Positions 1 through 39,777 of a stretch of DNA of 64,000 nt are shown here, piece by piece (the stretch's first letter is position 1; each line of letters opens with the position of its first letter). This DNA is from Escherichia phage ECP2303. The DNA lies in the sequence record PP261279.1. One strand, 5' to 3'. The position numbers and the translations under genes were made by a program. Below the pieces are notes generated by a model. It was not told where the DNA came from, ran no database searches, and worked only from the letters and a program-made list of their open reading frames with translations.

Positions 1-110
1 TGACACTTTTGCCACTTTTGACACTTTTACCTTTGACACAATGTCACACAATATGCCATAATCTGACACCTTATACACTTTCGACACAATAACGACTGTT
101 ATTATTTCAT
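1..110. repeat. iteron-like cluster of (T)GACAC direct repeats
   Basis: Direct reading: tgacac/gacac recurs about six times in ~100 bp with one inverted copy (gtgtca); non-coding. Confidence 0.5.
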
Positions 111-11310: not shown

Positions 11311-11508
11311 TTATTTTTTATTAAACCAGTGGTTGATCTGGCCTTTTGTCAGGGCGCAACGATTAAGCTGTTGCCGAGTATAGCTCTGACCGCGACGGAA
11401 TTTATAAAGGCCTTGCCCGTTGTTGATGGTTACATCCACCCGGCAAACCATTTGATCGGTGACCACCTGGCGAGTGTTGCGACGTACTTTGATTCCGTAG
11501 GCGTTCAT
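11311..11508 (-). CDS. hypothetical basic protein
   Basis: 65-aa ORF; RBS agagaggataaaaaatc-ATG. Confidence 0.6.
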   Translation of the reverse strand: MNAYGIKVRRNTRQVVTDQMVCRVDVTINNGQGLYKFRRGQSYTRQQLNRCALTKGQINHWFNKK

Positions 11509-11561
11509 GATTTTTTATCCTCTCTGTTAATTGGTGTGGTGTTGTTCACCTTGCGAGGATA

Positions 11562-11590
11562 AGAATAACAATAACTGTACGAGCTGTCAA
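11562..11590 (-). promoter_or_regulatory. sigma70-like promoter
   Basis: Minus-sense TTGACA-17 nt-TATTCT upstream of the gene starting at 11508. Confidence 0.35.
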
Positions 11591-11770
11591 CCATTAGTTA
11601 GAATTATTTTTTTTGGGCAGAATTCTCCAGCCGCCGCCCCTACCAGGTTAACCATCGTTTTTTCGTACTCTTCTTTATGTTCCAACGCTCCCGCCATAGC
11701 CTTTTCAACCAGGGCGATAGCCTCAGCGTCATTAATCGCTACATTTCCAGGGGATCAAATTACCTTTCAT
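11588..11770 (-). CDS. possible small gene with frameshift or non-ATG start
   Basis: Strong RBS gaggagg then ATG opens a 12-codon frame (MKGNLIPWKCSD); the +1 frame continues as protein-like ...NDAEAIALVEKAMAGALEHKEEYEKTMVNLVGAAAGEFCPKKIILTNG. Confidence 0.2.
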
Positions 11771-11960
11771 TTTTGTACCTCCTCTTCAATTGTTACCTGC
11801 CCTATAGCATAGGCCTACCAGGTTTGCAAGCTTTCACTCTCTCCTACCTGGTCAGTCAGGTCCTGCCAGGTTGGCCCCGCCAGGTTGCAACGGTTAGCGC
11901 ATCAGGTTAGAATTTTTTTGAAAAGTGTTGACAGCGGCCCCGCCAGGTGGCACAATATAC
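11640..11960. repeat. dispersed CCAGGTT iterons plus two AGGTTAGAATT-T-run elements
   Basis: ccaggtt at ~11643, 11818, 11866, 11880 (caggtt 11903, ccaggtg 11945); aggttagaatt with T-run at ~11596 and ~11905. Confidence 0.45.
11928..11958 (+). promoter_or_regulatory. candidate sigma70-like promoter, plus strand
   Basis: TTGACA-17 nt-CACAAT; followed by the GAGACAA-CACCGGGG motif. Confidence 0.35.
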
Positions 11961-11989
11961 CTATCGGAAGGACGGCAGGCACCGGTGAC

Positions 11990-12009
11990 GGGGGAGACAA
12001 CCACCGGGG
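11990..12009 (+). promoter_or_regulatory. conserved motif GGGGGAGACAACCACCGGGG
   Basis: Close copies at 12126-12144 (same strand), 2368-2386 (opposite strand) and 351-370 (degenerate). Confidence 0.45.
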
Positions 12010-12071
12010 ATGGGCGCTGCATAAAATGAGAACGGTTATCATTATCATTTAAAAATTTATGCAAAAAATCC

Positions 12072-12102
12072 TTGCTTTCTTTGTCCTGTGTGATACTATA
12101 AT
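12072..12102 (+). promoter_or_regulatory. candidate extended -10 sigma70 promoter, plus strand
   Basis: TTGCTT-16 nt-TACTAT(AAT) with TG one nucleotide upstream of the -10. Confidence 0.4.
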
Positions 12103-12125
12103 AACAAGCCGGGGCAACAGGGGCC

Positions 12126-12144
12126 GGGAGACAATCACCGGGGG
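12126..12144 (+). promoter_or_regulatory. conserved motif GGGAGACAATCACCGGGGG
   Basis: Second tandem copy, ~35 nt downstream of the 12072 promoter, followed by gagaatgattatcatt as in copy 1. Confidence 0.45.
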
Positions 12145-12217
12145 TGCCCGTTATTCTGCAAACGAGAATGATTATCATTCAAAATTCTAAATGAGAACTT
12201 TTCGCATTTCATAAATT

Positions 12218-12231
12218 TAGTTAGCATGCTA
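12218..12231. promoter_or_regulatory. perfect 12-bp palindrome TTAGCATGCTAA (operator-like)
   Basis: Read directly in non-coding DNA. Confidence 0.3.
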
Positions 12232-12304
12232 ATTACCTACCGTGACAATTCTATATAAAATAATACCTCCTTAAATATTTCCATATACAAATTTTAAAAA
12301 TCCA

Positions 12305-12480
12305 TTTCCGAAAACGAAAAATCGATTTCGTCCCCAAAAATTTCAGGTCGAGCTCCGGAACGATTTCCAGAAAATCTGATTCAGAAAACGAAAAACAGAT
12401 CGAGTACTAAGAAATTTATCGAGAAAAATTTTCAGAAAATTCAATCTTTGAAACGAAAAACAGATCGAGTACTGAGAGAG
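12305..12480. repeat. three degenerate ~66-74-bp tandem repeats
   Basis: Units begin gaaaacgaaaaa at ~12310, 12384, 12450; units 2 and 3 share cagatcgagtact(a/g)ag. Confidence 0.55.
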
Positions 12481-12631
12481 ATGTATCAAAACCTACTGAG
12501 AATAATGGGCTTATTGTTATAAAAGGTCAAAGGTAAGCTGGGAAAGTTCTGGTAGAAGGGTGAGGGTATGTGCGGAAAATCTGGAATAGTAACTTAAAGT
12601 ACGGTGCGAACGATAGAATGAGCAGCACATC

Positions 12632-12739
12632 TTATCGCGCCTGTCTTGAAAAATCCATTTTAGTTTTCGATCCATTTTCTGATTTTCTAAGAATTTTAAA
12701 ATATCCGGCCAGGTAAAATATCAAAAGGAGGAAATCCAT
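12632..12739 (-). CDS. small membrane peptide (35 aa) with stem-loop over its ribosome-binding site
   Basis: TAAGGAGG RBS 9 nt before ATG; MDFLLLIFYLAGYFKILRK...; the SD GGAGG can pair with CCTCC in codons 3-5. Confidence 0.35.
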   Translation of the reverse strand: MDFLLLIFYLAGYFKILRKSENGSKTKMDFSRQAR

Positions 12740-12784
12740 TTTAGAAATCCTCCTTATACTTGATGTGCCAGGGATTTTCAAGTA

Positions 12785-13114
12785 TCAACTGTCTTTGTTT
12801 TTAGGCTTGTGCATACGTAGAGGTATGGTCTTTATAACATTCCATCTACCCAACCCCTCCCAGTTCCAATTGTGAGCGTGATACCCGGTTATGCATGCAC
12901 TGCTGGCGTGATCATAAGCATAAGAGAACGCTATGCGAACCAAGTGGGGCCAGTCCCTCCACGGCTGTGGACCGTAAGCCTTCCTCCAACACCGACACAA
13001 ACTAATTGTCTCAAGAATAGGTAGAATAACAAATCCATATACCGCCACCAAAATGGTCAGAGCAATGATTGTCAGGAATACATACCCTGCAGTTGAAATA
13101 ATGATCTCTGTCAT
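12785..13114 (-). CDS. membrane protein
   Basis: 109 aa; hydrophobic N-terminal helix AGYVFLTIIALTILVAVYGFVILPIL. Confidence 0.6.
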   Translation of the reverse strand: MTEIIISTAGYVFLTIIALTILVAVYGFVILPILETISLCRCWRKAYGPQPWRDWPHLVRIAFSYAYDHASSACITGYHAHNWNWEGLGRWNVIKTIPLRMHKPKNKDS

Positions 13115-13909: not shown

Positions 13910-14101
13910 TCACTTGTTGTTAAGAAGTTCTAAAACTTTCTGTTTTACTTTATCAAGGTCTGTTGATTCAAAAACTGTGCGATATCCCCAACTTTGCCCA
14001 TAGGAATGACTGCAATCCCCGTAACACCATTGCTCAACTTGATAGTATTCAAGGAATGGGTGCTGTCTAACTATGATGCCGTCTCGATTAAAAATTACCA
14101 T
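13910..14101 (-). CDS. hypothetical protein
   Basis: 63-aa ORF. Confidence 0.55.
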   Translation of the reverse strand: MVIFNRDGIIVRQHPFLEYYQVEQWCYGDCSHSYGQSWGYRTVFESTDLDKVKQKVLELLNNK

Positions 14102-14164
14102 AATTTATCCCTCTCTGCTAGTCTATGTTTGTATTATATACTGCAGTTTTCAGATGTCAACCTT

Positions 14165-14610: not shown

Positions 14611-15069
14611 TCAACACCCTTTGTACTCCACCACGATAATATCTATATCAAAAGTGGCAAGGTTAATAATGTCCTCTACATGTTCCCACTTCAAACCGCC
14701 TATGCCGCACCCGATCTTAGGGATGTAGAATGGTAAAATCGACCCCTCAAATACTTCATTGACTCGCTCAAATCCTTTCAGTATTGAGAAATATTCAGCA
14801 TTAGGTCCTGGATAGAACTGAGTATACAGATTTATTCCGTAGACAATACCTCTCGGAGATAAGTGCTCCCAACGGGAGAACGCGCCCAGTTTACTTAGGC
14901 AACCGTGCATAGTCATTTTATCAGCTTCCAATGCTTGAGGGAATTCACGAGCAATCTGCTTTGCTACACCCTTCCCCATTGTGTGGAAGCAGTTACAACC
15001 GTGGATCAGGTGACCAGCACCGCTCTTAAAAAGGGAGATTAAATCTCCCTCTACAGTATCAATAATCAC
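14611..15069 (-). CDS. macro-domain protein (ADP-ribose binding/processing family)
   Basis: Translation shows IVIIDTVEGDLI, HGCNCFHTMGKGVAKQI and IPKIGCGIGG, aligning with macro-domain blocks (GDIT, NAAN...GGGGVDGAI, P.ISTG.YG); likely GTG start overlapping the upstream stop. Confidence 0.6.
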   Translation of the reverse strand: MIIDTVEGDLISLFKSGAGHLIHGCNCFHTMGKGVAKQIAREFPQALEADKMTMHGCLSKLGAFSRWEHLSPRGIVYGINLYTQFYPGPNAEYFSILKGFERVNEVFEGSILPFYIPKIGCGIGGLKWEHVEDIINLATFDIDIIVVEYKGC

Positions 15070-16322: not shown

Positions 16323-17549
16323 TTAAAAAGGTATGTCATCATCAAAGGCGTACTGTGCCGGATTCTGATCCATCGGGTCGTCTTCCGCATCATCTACAGG
16401 AGGAGCGTCTACAGTGTTTTGCTGTGGGGCGGCTTCCTGTTTGGCAGCTTGAGGCTCTTGATGGTCAGTGGCTCCAGCACCGTTCTTGATCCAATCATAC
16501 AACGGTTCAGCAAGATTAGTCAAGACATCTTTTGCCTCTGCAGTAATTGCTACTGCAAAATCATCAACTTTCGTTTTCTTGTCAATACGGCGACAAGCGT
16601 TCAATACCGCATTACCAACACTGGCACCTACTTCATCTTCAGTTCGGTTAGTGGCTTGAGCGTACTCTTTCTTAAGCTCGATGGTGACCACGTGCAGTGT
16701 TTTAGCCACATCTAAAGGGCTGTCAATCTTAAACCCGCGATCCAGGATGATCTGCAATGCATTGATACTGTGCCCTGTCTCTACACCGATGGGGTCGTAA
16801 GAGGATTTACGCTTACCACCAGAACCTTGTGTACCGTTCTCTGCTTTAGGCGGGTAGGCCTTGAAGCCGCTGATAATATTCCCGGTGTCTTTGTCAACAA
16901 TAGCTGCAACACGACCGCCAACCACCAGGTCTTTAAGCTGCTCATCAGAGACAACCATAGCACCTTCACCAATCTTGTGATCATTGACAGTAACCACGTT
17001 GCCAACAATCTGAGTCACATCACCATAGATGCGTAAAACGTCCTGATTGGCATTCTGCTGAGGTTTCTGCTTCTGGCCTTGTGATTGTGTGCCTTGTTGC
17101 TGTTTTTGTTGCTGTGGAGCTGCTGGAGCCTCTCCTGCCCCCAACTTAACCATTTTAGCCAGTGAGCCTTTGTAGTAGGTCTTGCCGTTATGCTCGTTTG
17201 CCTTCAAAGGGATATTTACGATCCATCCTGGCGTTACGGTTTCCCACTTGTCGTCAATTTTAACAGAGACGGAGTCTTGATGACCAGGCTTAAGCAGCTT
17301 ATCACCCATACTGATCCAAACTTCTTCACCACCTTGGAGCAGGTTATCAGAGGAGTCCAGTTCAGAAATCAGTAAAGAGATGGTGTGGCTGGATTCAATT
17401 TTCTTACCTTGCCACACAGTGGTTTTAATACCTGTTGTAGGATCAGCACCTTTAATGGGCTTGATGCTGACACGTTTAATCATACCGTGAGCCAGTAAAA
17501 CAGTTTCACGCGGATTCATCGGGTTGGCAAATTGTTGAATAACGCTCAT
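16323..17549 (-). CDS. single-stranded DNA-binding protein-like (acidic C-terminal DDDIPF tail, Q-rich linker)
   Basis: C-terminus ...AQYAFDDDIPF matches the bacterial SSB tail signature; start at MSVIQQ... with RBS aaggagacaaata-ATG rather than the upstream ORF-track start. Confidence 0.6.
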   Translation of the reverse strand: MSVIQQFANPMNPRETVLLAHGMIKRVSIKPIKGADPTTGIKTTVWQGKKIESSHTISLLISELDSSDNLLQGGEEVWISMGDKLLKPGHQDSVSVKIDDKWETVTPGWIVNIPLKANEHNGKTYYKGSLAKMVKLGAGEAPAAPQQQKQQQGTQSQGQKQKPQQNANQDVLRIYGDVTQIVGNVVTVNDHKIGEGAMVVSDEQLKDLVVGGRVAAIVDKDTGNIISGFKAYPPKAENGTQGSGGKRKSSYDPIGVETGHSINALQIILDRGFKIDSPLDVAKTLHVVTIELKKEYAQATNRTEDEVGASVGNAVLNACRRIDKKTKVDDFAVAITAEAKDVLTNLAEPLYDWIKNGAGATDHQEPQAAKQEAAPQQNTVDAPPVDDAEDDPMDQNPAQYAFDDDIPF

Positions 17550-17914
17550 TATTTGTCTCCTTGTTCTTCGTTGGTGTTTGCTGTGTGTGCAAACCCTGCT
17601 TGAATTAATTTGTCCTGCACTTGAGCCAACAGGCCCATTGCAAAACTTGTCGTCCCAGAAAGGGCCATTAGCATATCTCGTTGCTGAGCTACCCAACCTA
17701 AGGCATAATCTAAACGACGATATTTTTCTTCTTCGCGCAGAGCCTGAAATAACTGTTCAGCCTCTGGTTGTTGTGTGAGCTCCTGAAGTCTTCCCATAAA
17801 AGAAGAAAGTACCAGCAGAAGAGACACTTGATCTTTGCTTAACCCTAAGAAAAATTCTTGAGGTTGTTCTTGCTCGTTCATCGCAACCGACGCTTGATCG
17901 TTCATTTGTTCCAT
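17549..17914 (-). CDS. hypothetical protein
   Basis: ORF-track frame 17549..17959; start at MEQMNDQ... with RBS ggag; TAATG overlap with the SSB-like gene. Confidence 0.55.
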   Translation of the reverse strand: MEQMNDQASVAMNEQEQPQEFFLGLSKDQVSLLLVLSSFMGRLQELTQQPEAEQLFQALREEEKYRRLDYALGWVAQQRDMLMALSGTTSFAMGLLAQVQDKLIQAGFAHTANTNEEQGDK

Positions 17915-17996
17915 TGTGGAATCTCCGATTTTATTTGAACAACATAAAGGAGACACCATTTTAGCATCTCCTTCTGTAAATTACAACAGCTATTTA

Positions 17997-18242
17997 TTAG
18001 CCAATTACTTCGAAAGTGCCCCAACTCCCGTTCAGCAGGCAGGTGATCGGATCACCATCATCGTCAATTATTTCAAAGTTTTCAACATCCAGAATATGGT
18101 CATCGAACACAATACTTTCGTCACCACCACCAGAAACAACAGTGTATTCCTTACCTTGAGTCAAGTTTTGACACCCTTTGCCACCAAAACCTACTTCAAC
18201 ACAACGTACTTTCTGTCCTGCGCGAGCAACTACTTCAGCCAT
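17997..18242 (-). CDS. hypothetical small protein
   Basis: 81-aa ORF; RBS aggaga. Confidence 0.6.
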   Translation of the reverse strand: MAEVVARAGQKVRCVEVGFGGKGCQNLTQGKEYTVVSGGGDESIVFDDHILDVENFEIIDDDGDPITCLLNGSWGTFEVIG

Positions 18243-38726: not shown

Positions 38727-38745
38727 CACGTTTTTGATGTTGACA
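38722..38745. promoter_or_regulatory. operator-like inverted repeat shared by the divergent promoters
   Basis: GTCAACAcgtttttgaTGTTGAC overlapping both -35 elements. Confidence 0.45.
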
Positions 38746-38768
38746 TCTGTTGAGACAATTGATACGAT
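38740..38768 (+). promoter_or_regulatory. sigma70-like promoter for the rightward operon
   Basis: TTGACA-17 nt-TACGAT. Confidence 0.55.
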
Positions 38769-38799
38769 TTCTTCACTTACAGAGCACGAGAGACGACGC

Positions 38800-39777
38800 A
38801 TGAATCTTGAAAAATATTATACACCAGAAGAGTTAGAGCGCTTGCTCAAAAAATATAGACGCAAACAGAATAACGCACGGAAACGAGATATAGAGTTCGA
38901 CCTGTCATGGGAAGAATACCTCCTATTTGGTAAAAAACTTTTAGGAGATGGAGTATGCGACTATACCCTTATACCTTTTGACATGCACACAGATGAAAAC
39001 GGGCTGGGGAATCCTTTCTACCCATCTTTGGAGCGTATAGATGATGAAGGTCCTTACGCAATTGACAATTGTTGTGTGGTAGGGTTGAGGTGCAATGCTC
39101 TGAAAGACTGTCTGGTAGATAAAAAGACTGCAATCCTGATTAAAGACAAAACTGATCGAAAAATTGTCCAGCAGATGATGCTCCACCTGAGTGAAGAGCG
39201 TATGGAGAAGTTGAAAGGTGATTATACTTTTGAAGATTTCATCTTGCAATACGGGACAGAAGAAGATAAACTAGCACTATTTGACGAAGAGGAAGAAGAT
39301 ATGTCACCGATGCAGGATTTTAAAAATTTCATGGCTGATCGTGCAGCCAACAAACACATTTCAGACATCGTAAACGAGACTGTGACAGAAGAAATTGAAG
39401 AACAGACATCTGAAGAGGAAAAAGAGCCTCAGGTGGTTGAAGAGGAGATTGCAGAAGAGGTTCCTGCACTGCCTGATGATGTTGAGATTGCTAAGGCTTA
39501 CACTTTCTATTGTCAAACGTTCTACGATGCAGGTATGAAAGTTGACCTGTCGTTCAGCCAATTTAAGAGTTCGTATATTCGCAAATGCTGTGCTTTAACT
39601 GGTGAACGTCTCGGAGCTGGACTTAAACCACTGTTGGTGACCGACTGGAATAAAGGTTTCACTAAAGGAAACTTTATGGTAGTATCTCCAATTATGGAGA
39701 AAGCTATGACAGATCTTATGAAGACCACCCGCATGACAATGACCGAGTTGGCAGGTATTTTCAAACACGTTAAATAA
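38800..39777 (+). CDS. HNH-endonuclease-like domain protein
   Basis: ORF-track frame from 38734; start moved to the ATG at 38800 because the first ATG overlaps the -35; CDY...SLERIDDEGPY..DNCCVVGLRCNALK resembles an HNH core. Confidence 0.45.
   Translation: MNLEKYYTPEELERLLKKYRRKQNNARKRDIEFDLSWEEYLLFGKKLLGDGVCDYTLIPFDMHTDENGLGNPFYPSLERIDDEGPYAIDNCCVVGLRCNALKDCLVDKKTAILIKDKTDRKIVQQMMLHLSEERMEKLKGDYTFEDFILQYGTEEDKLALFDEEEEDMSPMQDFKNFMADRAANKHISDIVNETVTEEIEEQTSEEEKEPQVVEEEIAEEVPALPDDVEIAKAYTFYCQTFYDAGMKVDLSFSQFKSSYIRKCCALTGERLGAGLKPLLVTDWNKGFTKGNFMVVSPIMEKAMTDLMKTTRMTMTELAGIFKHVK

Follow-up and report, generated by a model that had tools for sequence, protein, structure and literature searches.

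The locus and its open reading frame

The window analyzed here, which is the whole 64,000-nt stretch of the Escherichia phage ECP2303 record PP261279.1, is identified by sequence comparison as part of a Vequintavirus (rV5-like) coliphage genome. Segment 11400-13400 is 100% identical to Escherichia phage ECP2309 (PP464953.1, where the record coordinate equals the window coordinate plus 459) and 85-98% identical to more than 110 other Vequintavirus genomes. A host or prophage origin of 11500-12800 was rejected because matches to this segment are absent from 5,426 complete E. coli genomes. Scans of public collections added two IMG/VR contigs and six true metagenome contigs; a further hit, L020, was a chance match. 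The features of the locus are collected in Table 1. A 35-codon open reading frame (ORF) lies downstream of the last gene of an operon, and every one of its flanking genes is encoded on the minus strand. It is annotated as hypothetical protein WXX18271.1 in the ECP2309 record, and its rV5 homolog is ORF199, a hypothetical protein of 70 aa.

Table 1. Positions of the features discussed in the text, in window coordinates.
Feature	Position	Strand	Description
Last gene of upstream operon	12785..13114	minus	109 aa; rV5 ORF200 homolog
35-codon ORF	12632..12739	minus	translation MDFLLLIFYLAGYFKILRKSENGSKTKMDFSRQAR (35 aa)
Perfect TAAGGAGG ("SD")	12756-12749	minus	gap of 9 nt to the ATG
ATG of the ORF	12739-12737	minus	
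CCTCC	12731-12727	minus	covers codons 3-5; complementary to GGAGG
Hairpin h1	12724..12757	minus	two-tier RNA hairpin; folding, covariation, covariance-model match
h1 lower stem, type i	12755-12748 with 12732-12725	minus	8 bp, AAGGAGGA/UCCUCCUU
h1 lower stem, type ii			CAGGAGAA/UUCUCCUG; slur16, Mangalyan
h1 lower stem, type iii			AGGGAAAAU/AUUUUCCCU; phages with an extra upstream 192-215-aa gene
U-rich tail UUUUGAUAUUUU	12713..12726	minus	directly 3' of the h1 stem
Non-coding stretch, ~1.25 kb	11540..12784	minus	bounded upstream by h1; no codon periodicity
GATATTT, two copies	5' ends 12722, 12705	minus	
AAATGGAT, four copies	5' ends 12741, 12677, 12660, 12307	minus	
Nearly invariant unstructured block GGATATTTTAAAATTCTTAGAAAATCAGAAAATGGATCGAAAACTAAAATGGATTTTTCA	12645..12712	minus	28 of 30 columns invariant at 12694-12665
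CTCGAyC...TTTTCGTTT repeats, three copies	12469, 12404, 12352	minus	after a variable spacer
Second hairpin, 16 bp	12341-12304	minus	followed by AAATGGAT copy 4, reaching 12298
Fur-box-like palindromes	12182-12164, 12046-12028		each followed by a GC-rich segment
Hairpin h2	17944..17976	minus	GAAGGAGA-UG-CUA-AAA-UGG-UG-UCUCCUU, then UAUGUUGUU; ~20 nt past the stop of CDS 17997..18242 and ~30 nt ahead of the real start of the next gene (17914)

An earlier note on this DNA had described the perfect TAAGGAGG, its spacing to the ATG, and the complementarity of GGAGG to codons 3-5, all of which are confirmed, and had interpreted the ORF as the gene of a small membrane protein or toxin. The ORF was compared among 14 homologous loci (72-100% identity) and 4 variant loci, and later among 23 distinct Vequintavirus versions. 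Across the 14 plus 4 loci its length is 7, 14, 15-16, 32, 35, 68, 70, or 84 codons, or the ATG is missing altogether. NHEP1 has ATA in place of ATG, an extra T at codon 6 of phiWec196 (+1 nt) leaves 14 codons, a 4-nt deletion in slur16 and Mangalyan leaves 7, and a different short peptide of 16 residues, MDFPLFIRYLQIFGNP, is specified in SYGMH1, 241Ecol014PP, and the metagenome locus L017. A T5/T6 indel near 12650 shifts the C-terminus and results in 32, 35, 68, 70, or 84 codons. Almost no variation is seen over the ~110 nt that run from the SD-like sequence to AAAATGGATTTTTCA, with variable flanks on both sides.

The variable columns of the ORF are distributed over the three codon positions as 11/7/15 (p = 0.23), whereas the three nearest real genes give 10/6/36, 25/14/52, and 5/7/20 (p = 2e-7, 3e-6, and 0.002, respectively); a Fisher test of the ORF against the pooled neighbor genes is by itself weak (p = 0.087). 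A sliding scan detects codon periodicity at 13340-12801 and at 11480-11301, and in no frame from ~12860 to ~11540. The hydrophobic N-terminus described in the earlier note is present in the ECP2303 isolate and is not a property of the other phages: the best 19-aa Kyte-Doolittle mean is 1.12 in ECP2303 and 0.24-0.58 elsewhere. The cut-off for a membrane helix on this scale is ~1.6, and no version of the peptide reaches it. Within the hydrophobic stretch the replacements are radical, YLAG being HRAG, HRTR, or LPG in other phages. The 35-aa peptide matches no PHROG family, whereas the neighboring genes do.

A true small membrane or toxin gene, of the type I toxin or holin-like kind and masked by an SD/anti-SD hairpin, would account for the strong, sequestered ribosome-binding site and the hydrophobic start in ECP2303, and a CDS is annotated here in ECP2309, rV5 (ORF199), FV3, Murica, and Pr121LW. 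The database records nevertheless disagree, giving 32, 35, 70, or 84 aa, an ORF on the opposite strand, or in many cases nothing. The resemblance to type I toxin mRNAs such as hok, tisB, ldr, and zor extends to the short ORF, the hydrophobic start, and the ribosome-binding site within a stem-loop. Unlike those toxins, the peptide is unconserved and below transmembrane length, and its frame is broken in several viable phages. A toxin of this type would also be paired with an antisense or overlapping sRNA, and no sigma-70-like promoter was reported on the opposite strand at 12630-12760. Given the frameshifts, the loss of the start codon, and the low hydropathy, we consider such a gene highly improbable. 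The nucleotide data confine the ORF to Vequintavirus, where it is not conserved. Because frame, start codon, and hydrophobic stretch are all unconserved and codon periodicity is lacking, we judge that the ORF is no conserved protein-coding gene, and it is best regarded as a by-product of an RNA element.

A two-tier hairpin and its paralog

The folding of the 5' region indicates a stem-loop over the SD, as the earlier note had suggested, and one that is more stable than expected by chance: the energies are -25.3 kcal/mol for the 76-nt context (z = -3.6, none of 200 shuffles being as good) and -15.5 kcal/mol for the hairpin plus tail (z = -3.3). The "SD" supplies the 5' side of the lower stem, half of whose pairs (4/8) are G-C. 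Above it the 15-nt loop region contains a 2x2 U/U internal loop and folds into a 4-bp upper stem (UCUA/UGGA) with an AAA triloop, such that the "ATG" sits inside the upper stem. The U-rich tail includes the first GATATTT repeat of the downstream module and is invariant across all type-i phages. A covariance model scores h1 at 52-55 bits. Rfam 15 gives no match at gathering score within the 64-kb window, and at E <= 5 the segment 11500-12900 contains a single chance-level match outside the hairpin (E = 0.75; 20 bits versus 126 bits gathering). Single folds also suggested an outer stem that would extend h1 into a hairpin of ~70-85 nt, formed from the variable flanks (CCUGGC...GCCGG versus AGGUU...GGACC). 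This was rejected in a chimera control, in which native and cross-clade combinations fold equally well (-22.8 and -22.9 kcal/mol), and therefore only the core hairpin is supported.

Nine distinct h1 cores of three stem types fall into a common register when anchored on AATGGATTT. In the ungapped alignment 90.6% of cells are paired, versus 51-60% when the partner is slid by 1-3 columns. Changes on both sides occur in 5 pairs, and the covariation score is reached by 1 of 500 column shuffles, though the independent events are few, with type ii contributing a single shared change and type iii four at most. The gene cassette inserted in type iii is found in four Vequintavirus records only, always at the h1 site, and the type-iii hairpin may be homologous or may have come in with this cassette. 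All of the one-sided stem changes result in G-U pairs on the minus-strand RNA, indicating that the functional strand is the minus strand, in the polarity of the genes. What is conserved at the locus is thus an RNA hairpin whose pairing is kept by compensatory changes.

A mismatch search and two covariance models reveal one further hairpin of this kind in the 64 kb, the paralog h2, and none beyond h1 and h2; a genome-wide family of such hairpins was rejected accordingly. A third covariance-model match, at 15029-15053, lies inside a macro-domain CDS, lacks the loop motif, and was also rejected. The two models score h2 at 17 bits (R1) and 39 bits (R2), the latter having been trained partly on h2 itself. 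The h2 folding energies are -16.4 and -18.2 kcal/mol (z = -4.1 and -5.0). When h1 and h2 are aligned together, 94.1% of cells are paired, compared with 54-63% in the slid alignments, and 8 pairs are changed on both sides; none of 500 shuffles reaches the observed score.

The paralog bears directly on the status of the ATG. ECP2303 provides a test case, since here the loop AUG of h2 is in frame with the next gene. The annotated start of that gene is 45 nt downstream of the loop AUG, has its own GGAG, and is invariant, whereas the loop AUG is AUA in 6 of 8 Vequintavirus versions, and its frame with the next gene is disrupted by a 1-nt insertion; the loop AUG is therefore a structural part of the hairpin. 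AUA in the loop converts the U-G pair to U-A and yields a perfect upper stem, CUA-AAA-UAG. The same G-to-A change occurs at h1 in NHEP1, and at h2 most of the phages compared have it. These comparisons identify the h1 "ATG" as belonging to the small upper stem, (U)CUA-AAA-U(G/A)G(A), in a conserved hairpin of two tiers, with the purine-rich "SD" forming its lower arm. That a perfect TAAGGAGG may turn up here by chance as well is shown by a copy at 12273-12266, which is present in only 2 of the 14 phages and, being unconserved, was rejected as a functional ribosome site.

Among the starts of 88 annotated genes, the region at 12739 is the third most structured (z = -2.8) and the second in SD/AUG pairing probability (mean 0.68 over -15..+3). 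A ribosome attempting to start here would be hindered according to the folding calculations, the start being predicted to be among the most occluded in the genome. With regard to the masked start proposed earlier, the pairing between the SD-like arm and codons 3-5 stands, in a hairpin that is evolutionarily maintained, but no conserved gene follows it. The interpretation in the earlier note is thus partly supported, being right about the structure and wrong about the gene.

Strong occlusion is what a regulated start predicts, and ribosomes might begin translation at AUG 12739, reading a mini-ORF no shorter than 7 codons (starting M-D-F) whose sequence is unimportant. Here the hairpin would throttle initiation and the act of translation itself would be useful, for example as protection from Rho or from decay. 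Consistent with this, an SD-like run (AGGAGG, AGGGGG, GGGAGG, AGGAGA, or GAGGG) and AUG-GAU-UU occur at compatible spacing in all stem types, with NHEP1 the exception. However, NHEP1 is viable without the AUG, both the SD-like arm and the AUG are already accounted for by the structure, and at h2 the AUG has mostly been replaced while the real start, with its own SD, lies elsewhere. The stops range from codon 7 to codon 84, which is incompatible with a fixed ribosome-stalling geometry, and there is no couplable gene within 1.2 kb downstream. On balance, translation of a mini-ORF is an unlikely function for the element. Hairpins that sequester the SD of a phage gene include those of T4 e, soc, gene 49, and I-TevI, and the MS2 replicase operator. 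Like these, h1 has an SD-like 5' arm, an AUG in the loop, the first codons as its 3' arm, and a local structure predicted to be capable of blocking initiation. In the T4 and MS2 cases a conserved protein gene follows, and access is controlled by an alternative transcript or a binding protein; at h1, in contrast, the downstream frame is unconserved and the AUG dispensable, and at h2 the real gene start is elsewhere.

A probable transcript end or, less likely, a recognition structure

On the gene strand, h1 starts 28 nt after a stop codon and h2 ~20 nt after one. Transcription in the direction of the genes would produce h1 immediately beyond the ORF200 homolog, where the hairpin and its U-rich tail would act as a Rho-independent terminator, a protective 3'-end hairpin, or both, and would separate the upstream operon from the 1.25-kb non-coding module downstream. 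We infer that the selected activity is termination or 3'-end formation, and assign a probability of roughly one half to the reading that h1 closes off the upstream operon, either as an intrinsic terminator, which may be leaky, or as a hairpin at the RNA 3' end.

The versions of h1 fold at -13 to -18 kcal/mol and those of h2 at -16 to -18 kcal/mol, within the interval of -11.5 to -24.7 kcal/mol covered by the 20 predicted terminators that have been published for rV5 (Kropinski et al. 2013, PMC3606486, Table S4). With our own approximation of the TransTermHP weighting, the scores are -3.7 for the type-i tail, which places it among the best 0.3% of window 15-mers, -3.1 for the type-iii tail, and -3.4 and -2.7 for the h2 tails; only 0.3-3% of window 15-mers do as well as these tails, and for the published rV5 terminators (PMC3606486) the median is -3.8. 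The type-ii tail of slur16 and Mangalyan, in which the proximal UUUU is deleted, is weak (-1.7 to -1.9). Stems of the GGAGG/CCUCC type are also found in rV5 terminators t060 and t099 (PMC3606486). The rV5 authors place a sigma-70 promoter, P205, upstream at rV5 118994..119039 (PMC3606486), which corresponds to window ~14100-14160 by an estimated offset. Since P205 lies upstream and the next promoters occur only at window 11590 and ~11300, a transcript end after the ORF200 homolog fits the rV5 map. No transcript data (transcriptome or Term-seq) for Vequintavirus were found in the literature searched.

A promoter scan reported none inside or beside the hairpin. Two candidates were considered and rejected: TTGAAA-N17-TATAAG (12779-12751), which is without the -7 T and is missing in clade B, and TTGATA...TATTTT/TAAAAT downstream of the hairpin, which has spacers of 15 or 20 nt and is lost in type iii.

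As in the Rho-independent terminators of E. coli and of coliphages, rV5 included, a stable coding-strand stem-loop occurs soon after a stop codon with a U-rich tract 3' of it, and the tail score matches the rV5 set. Unlike in those terminators, the loop is much larger (~15 nt) and conserved in sequence, there is a second tier with a 2x2 internal loop, the lower stem is only half G-C, and the type-ii tail is weak. Standard finders also miss the structure: h1 was reported neither by ARNold in rV5 (PMC3606486) nor by a consensus terminator scan of the window, the latter because of its loop limit.

The loop CUAAAAU(G/A)G is conserved in h1 and h2 and partly in type iii. A plain terminator does not require a conserved loop, and its conservation is therefore a hint of sequence-specific recognition. 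Furthermore, in other genera the same downstream module occurs with no hairpin between it and the upstream gene, indicating that insulation of the module is not a universal need. The large conserved loop, the weak type-ii tail, and the hairpin-free genera together keep alive the alternative that an RNA-binding factor recognizes the hairpin, as either a processing site or an operator, with CUAAAAUGG presented on a two-tier stem. Candidates of this type would be an RNase III-type site whose cleavage leaves a stabilizing 3' hairpin, or an operator bound by an RNA-binding protein of the phage or the host. Paralogs 5.2 kb apart have the loop and upper stem in common, whereas their lower stems differ by compensatory changes, and the two-tier form, symmetric internal loop included, persists in h2 and in types i and ii of h1. 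The word AAAUGGAU is found three more times downstream, and the region contains six GGA triplets within ~110 nt, which may recall multi-site binders such as CsrA.

Against recognition, no candidate binding protein was identified: the "anti-termination protein" of the record is HNH-endonuclease/Srd-like according to PHROGs and was rejected as an antitermination partner. There are only two copies of the hairpin in 64 kb, the type-iii loop differs (AUGUAAUGG), the repeats of Proteus phage Mydo read AAAUGGUU and lack GGA, and no Rfam family matches. The closest known structures of this sort are the boxB hairpins of the lambda and P22 nut sites and the RNase III sites of T7, which likewise are A-rich or internal-loop hairpins with a conserved top situated between genes. 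They differ from h1 in that neither an N-like antiterminator nor a boxA partner was found here, where the hairpin has only two copies in 64 kb. We regard a recognition structure as less probable than the reading we favor, which is the terminator or 3'-end hairpin.

The finding is mainly corrective, in that the inconsistent ORF199-type CDS calls of 32-84 aa in rV5-like phage records should give way to a non-coding RNA hairpin or terminator feature, and the case shows that RNA structure can produce a perfect SD and ATG. As a non-coding RNA hairpin of a known general kind h1 is itself ordinary, and the 1.25-kb module that follows it is more interesting than the hairpin.

The downstream non-coding module

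The earlier note had pointed to the recurrence of a motif around the ATG. The four copies of AAATGGAT fall within 481 nt, far above the 0.02 expected by chance, and the motif occurs five times in the remaining ~127 kb, both strands. Exact AAATGGATTT is found three times in the 64 kb, in each case on the minus strand within 12298-12741. Rather than alternative starts, the aaATGGATtt copies are members of the repeat family of the non-coding module, a family that another genus has in the form AAATGGTTTTCA. Block GGATATTTTAAAATTCTTAGAAAATCAGAAAATGGATCGAAAACTAAAATGGATTTTTCA, in the 5' part of the module, contains the second GATATTT and AAATGGAT copies 2 and 3, and shows no folding excess (z = +0.6). 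The conserved blocks downstream have fold z values of -0.8 to +0.6 on both strands; with no folding excess and no Rfam match, structured RNA in these blocks has no support. The 1.25-kb region is conserved as strongly as the surrounding genes. The palindromes AATGATAAT(C/G)AT are located in two tandem units of ~136 nt, each of which also has a GC-rich segment; a variable part comes after the two units. Scored against the 19-bp Fur-box consensus, they match at 16/19 (12046-12028) and 15/19 (12182-12164) and are the two best matches in the window, and shuffled sequence gives 0.33 matches at <=4 mismatches.

Parts of the module are found in at least 6 genera of two subfamilies (Vequintavirinae and Stephanstirmvirinae), including 3-4 CTCGAyC repeats spaced 65-78 nt apart, GATATTT repeats, Fur-box-like AATGATAATCATT palindromes, and GC-rich segments. 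Order and orientation of these elements are preserved in phiTE, Mydo, Kashira, VLCpiM5a, F5M2A, and EspYZU08, and in part in ukendt (Stephanstirmvirinae), which is without the CTCGAyC repeats. In the other genera the module starts right at the stop codon of the upstream gene; in Mydo, three GATATTT copies and then two copies of AAATGGTTTTCA follow that gene. For phiTE_078 (phrog_12463), the protein encoded ahead of the module in other genera, there is neither a known domain nor a window homolog. Antitoxin mimicry of the ToxI type, as in phiTE, was rejected, there being no Rfam match and no visible ToxI-like repeat, and the phiTE paper makes no link from ToxI to the module locus. No description of the module was found in the searchable literature; the rV5 genome paper mentions a "non-coding" box without giving its location (PMC3606486).

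That the inverted repeat at h1 acts on DNA, as a protein-binding palindrome or single-strand hairpin at the head of a replication origin, or of some other site working at the DNA level, that the downstream repeats make up, would be consistent with its position next to strand-specific repeats (GATATTT, AAATGGAT, and CTCGAyC), with the nearby AT-rich zone (29-34% GC) and host-factor-like palindromes, and with the conservation of the downstream blocks as sequence and not as RNA structure. The one-sided stem changes are, however, G-U (G-T) compatible on one strand only, as expected of a nucleic acid that is single-stranded and of gene polarity, but not of a duplex palindrome. In addition, h2 lies between two ordinary genes far from any repeat module, and the rV5 authors saw no skew change at the locus (PMC3606486). 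A DNA-level role of the hairpin is quite improbable on this evidence, and a terminator or 3'-end hairpin at the module boundary is still preferred.

More tentatively, the hairpin and the AAAUGGAU repeats could together form a Vequintavirus-specific front end of an undescribed, strand-specific functional module, with the CUAAAAUGG top making the hairpin a specific recognition or processing signal instead of a generic terminator. Jointly with such a front end, the module might be, for example, an iron/Fur-responsive ncRNA gene, a host-factor sponge, or a replication origin. Should the module prove to be either an origin or a regulated RNA locus, it would offer a handle on replication or host sensing in phages that are widely used for biocontrol and therapy. 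One part of the module, an interval of ~80-100 nt around 12211-12111, is found at 80-86% identity in 254 phage records, including those of other genera and another subfamily, and is nearly always unannotated.

The conserved non-coding stretch

Across approximately 1.25 kb of the minus strand, codon periodicity was not found in any reading frame, and the annotation of this stretch differs between database records. Nucleotide conservation at 12490-11920 (minus strand) is at least as high as in the flanking genes, and over large parts of the stretch 25 to 30 of every 30 alignment columns are invariant. The 94-aa ORF lying within it is likewise unlikely to be a gene, because its variable sites are distributed over the three codon positions as 13, 16 and 19.

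A second perfect SD-like octamer, TAAGGAGG, also occurs here; among the 14 phages compared it is confined to this one and NHEP1, and no start codon is suitably spaced from it. Its occurrence shows that chance can produce perfect octamers of this kind in this part of the genome.

Coordinates of the features considered in this part. Those preceded by L refer to loci of SYGMH1 (L024), 241Ecol014PP (L025), phiTE (L029), Mydo (L030) and ukendt (L031), and all others to the window.
Feature	Coordinates	Strand	Remarks
Non-coding stretch	11540-12784	-	~1.25 kb
94-aa ORF	11894..12178		Inside 11540-12784; rV5 ORF198, phrog_14993
CTCGAyC repeats	12477-12297; L030 942-1100; L029 799-1060	- in window	3-4 degenerate copies
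Second perfect octamer	12273-12266	-	SD-like
Cross-genus conserved element	12211-12111; L029 1150-1330; L030 1150-1330; L031 1160-1400	- in window	~80-100 nt
Fur-box-like site	12182-12164	-	15/19 vs E. coli consensus
Fur-box-like site	12046-12028	-	16/19 vs E. coli consensus
Further GC-rich segment	L029 1300-1440; L030 1330-1460; L031 1340-1470		Common to phiTE, Mydo and ukendt
Extra gene, 192-215 aa	L024 830-1405; L025 761-1405		Between 109-aa gene and hairpin
Second two-tier hairpin (h2)	17944-17976	-	Between CDS 17997..18242 and CDS 17549..17914
Terminator-like hairpin	15029-15053	-	Within 5' end of macro-domain gene (GTG start 15069)
CDS 'anti-termination protein'	38737-39777	+	ECP2309 annotation; PHROG matches

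Repeats, Fur-box-like sites and GC-rich segments

The CTCGAyC repeats consist of this motif followed by TTTTCGTTT, with every copy on the gene strand and a spacing of 52-78 nt in most phages, reaching 107 nt in phiTE. Their order is kept in seven phages of several genera, and they do not resemble sigma-70 promoters or tRNAs. The cross-genus element is carried at 80-86% identity by 254 phage records, some of them from other genera: Certrevirus phiTE, Mydovirus, Seunavirus, an unclassified Serratia phage and Phapecoctavirus. It sits within large gene-free gaps, is almost never annotated, and gave no match in Rfam.

The Fur-box consensus of E. coli is GATAATGATAATCATTATC. The two Fur-box-like palindromes are the best matches to this consensus in the 64-kb window; shuffled sequence gives 0.33 hits at four or fewer mismatches. 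Their core, AATGATAATCATT, is invariant among five aligned sequences from four phages. The sequence of these sites suggests that Fur binding or iron-responsive control may operate in a lytic phage.

The further GC-rich segment of phiTE, Mydo and ukendt follows the pattern TTGCAAGCGTCTTTAC..CTTTACAAA...ACCGGCGAT.CACCTTCC.ACC.GG...GTTAGCCCCGCCTTTTCGCCGTGGGGTGGCG and is a candidate structured RNA. The window lacks it and has the Fur-like unit, duplicated in tandem, at the corresponding place.

Further hairpins

The paralogous hairpin h2 has the top CUAAAAUGG, the same as that of h1, the conserved two-tier hairpin at 12724..12757, and is kept in all eight versions examined. It is the key comparison for interpreting h1. 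The extra gene is inserted in four Vequintavirus records, in one of which its product is named 'ATP-dependent Clp protease', and is followed by the type-iii hairpin, a version of the h1 stem with a different loop; that loop holds AUGUAAUGG, a start-stop with an overlapping AUG.

The terminator-like hairpin, AGGGAGAU-UUA-AUCUCCCU followed by UUUUAAG, is probably a coincidence of coding sequence; its score against the hairpin model is 22.9 bits.

The 'anti-termination protein' annotation

The product name of this CDS looks wrong: its PHROG matches are to the HNH endonuclease family (E = 1e-110) and, at lower strength, to that of Srd/sigma-70 decoy, and Pfam returned no hit for it. The plus-strand CDS coordinates of the record appear to be one base off relative to the window.
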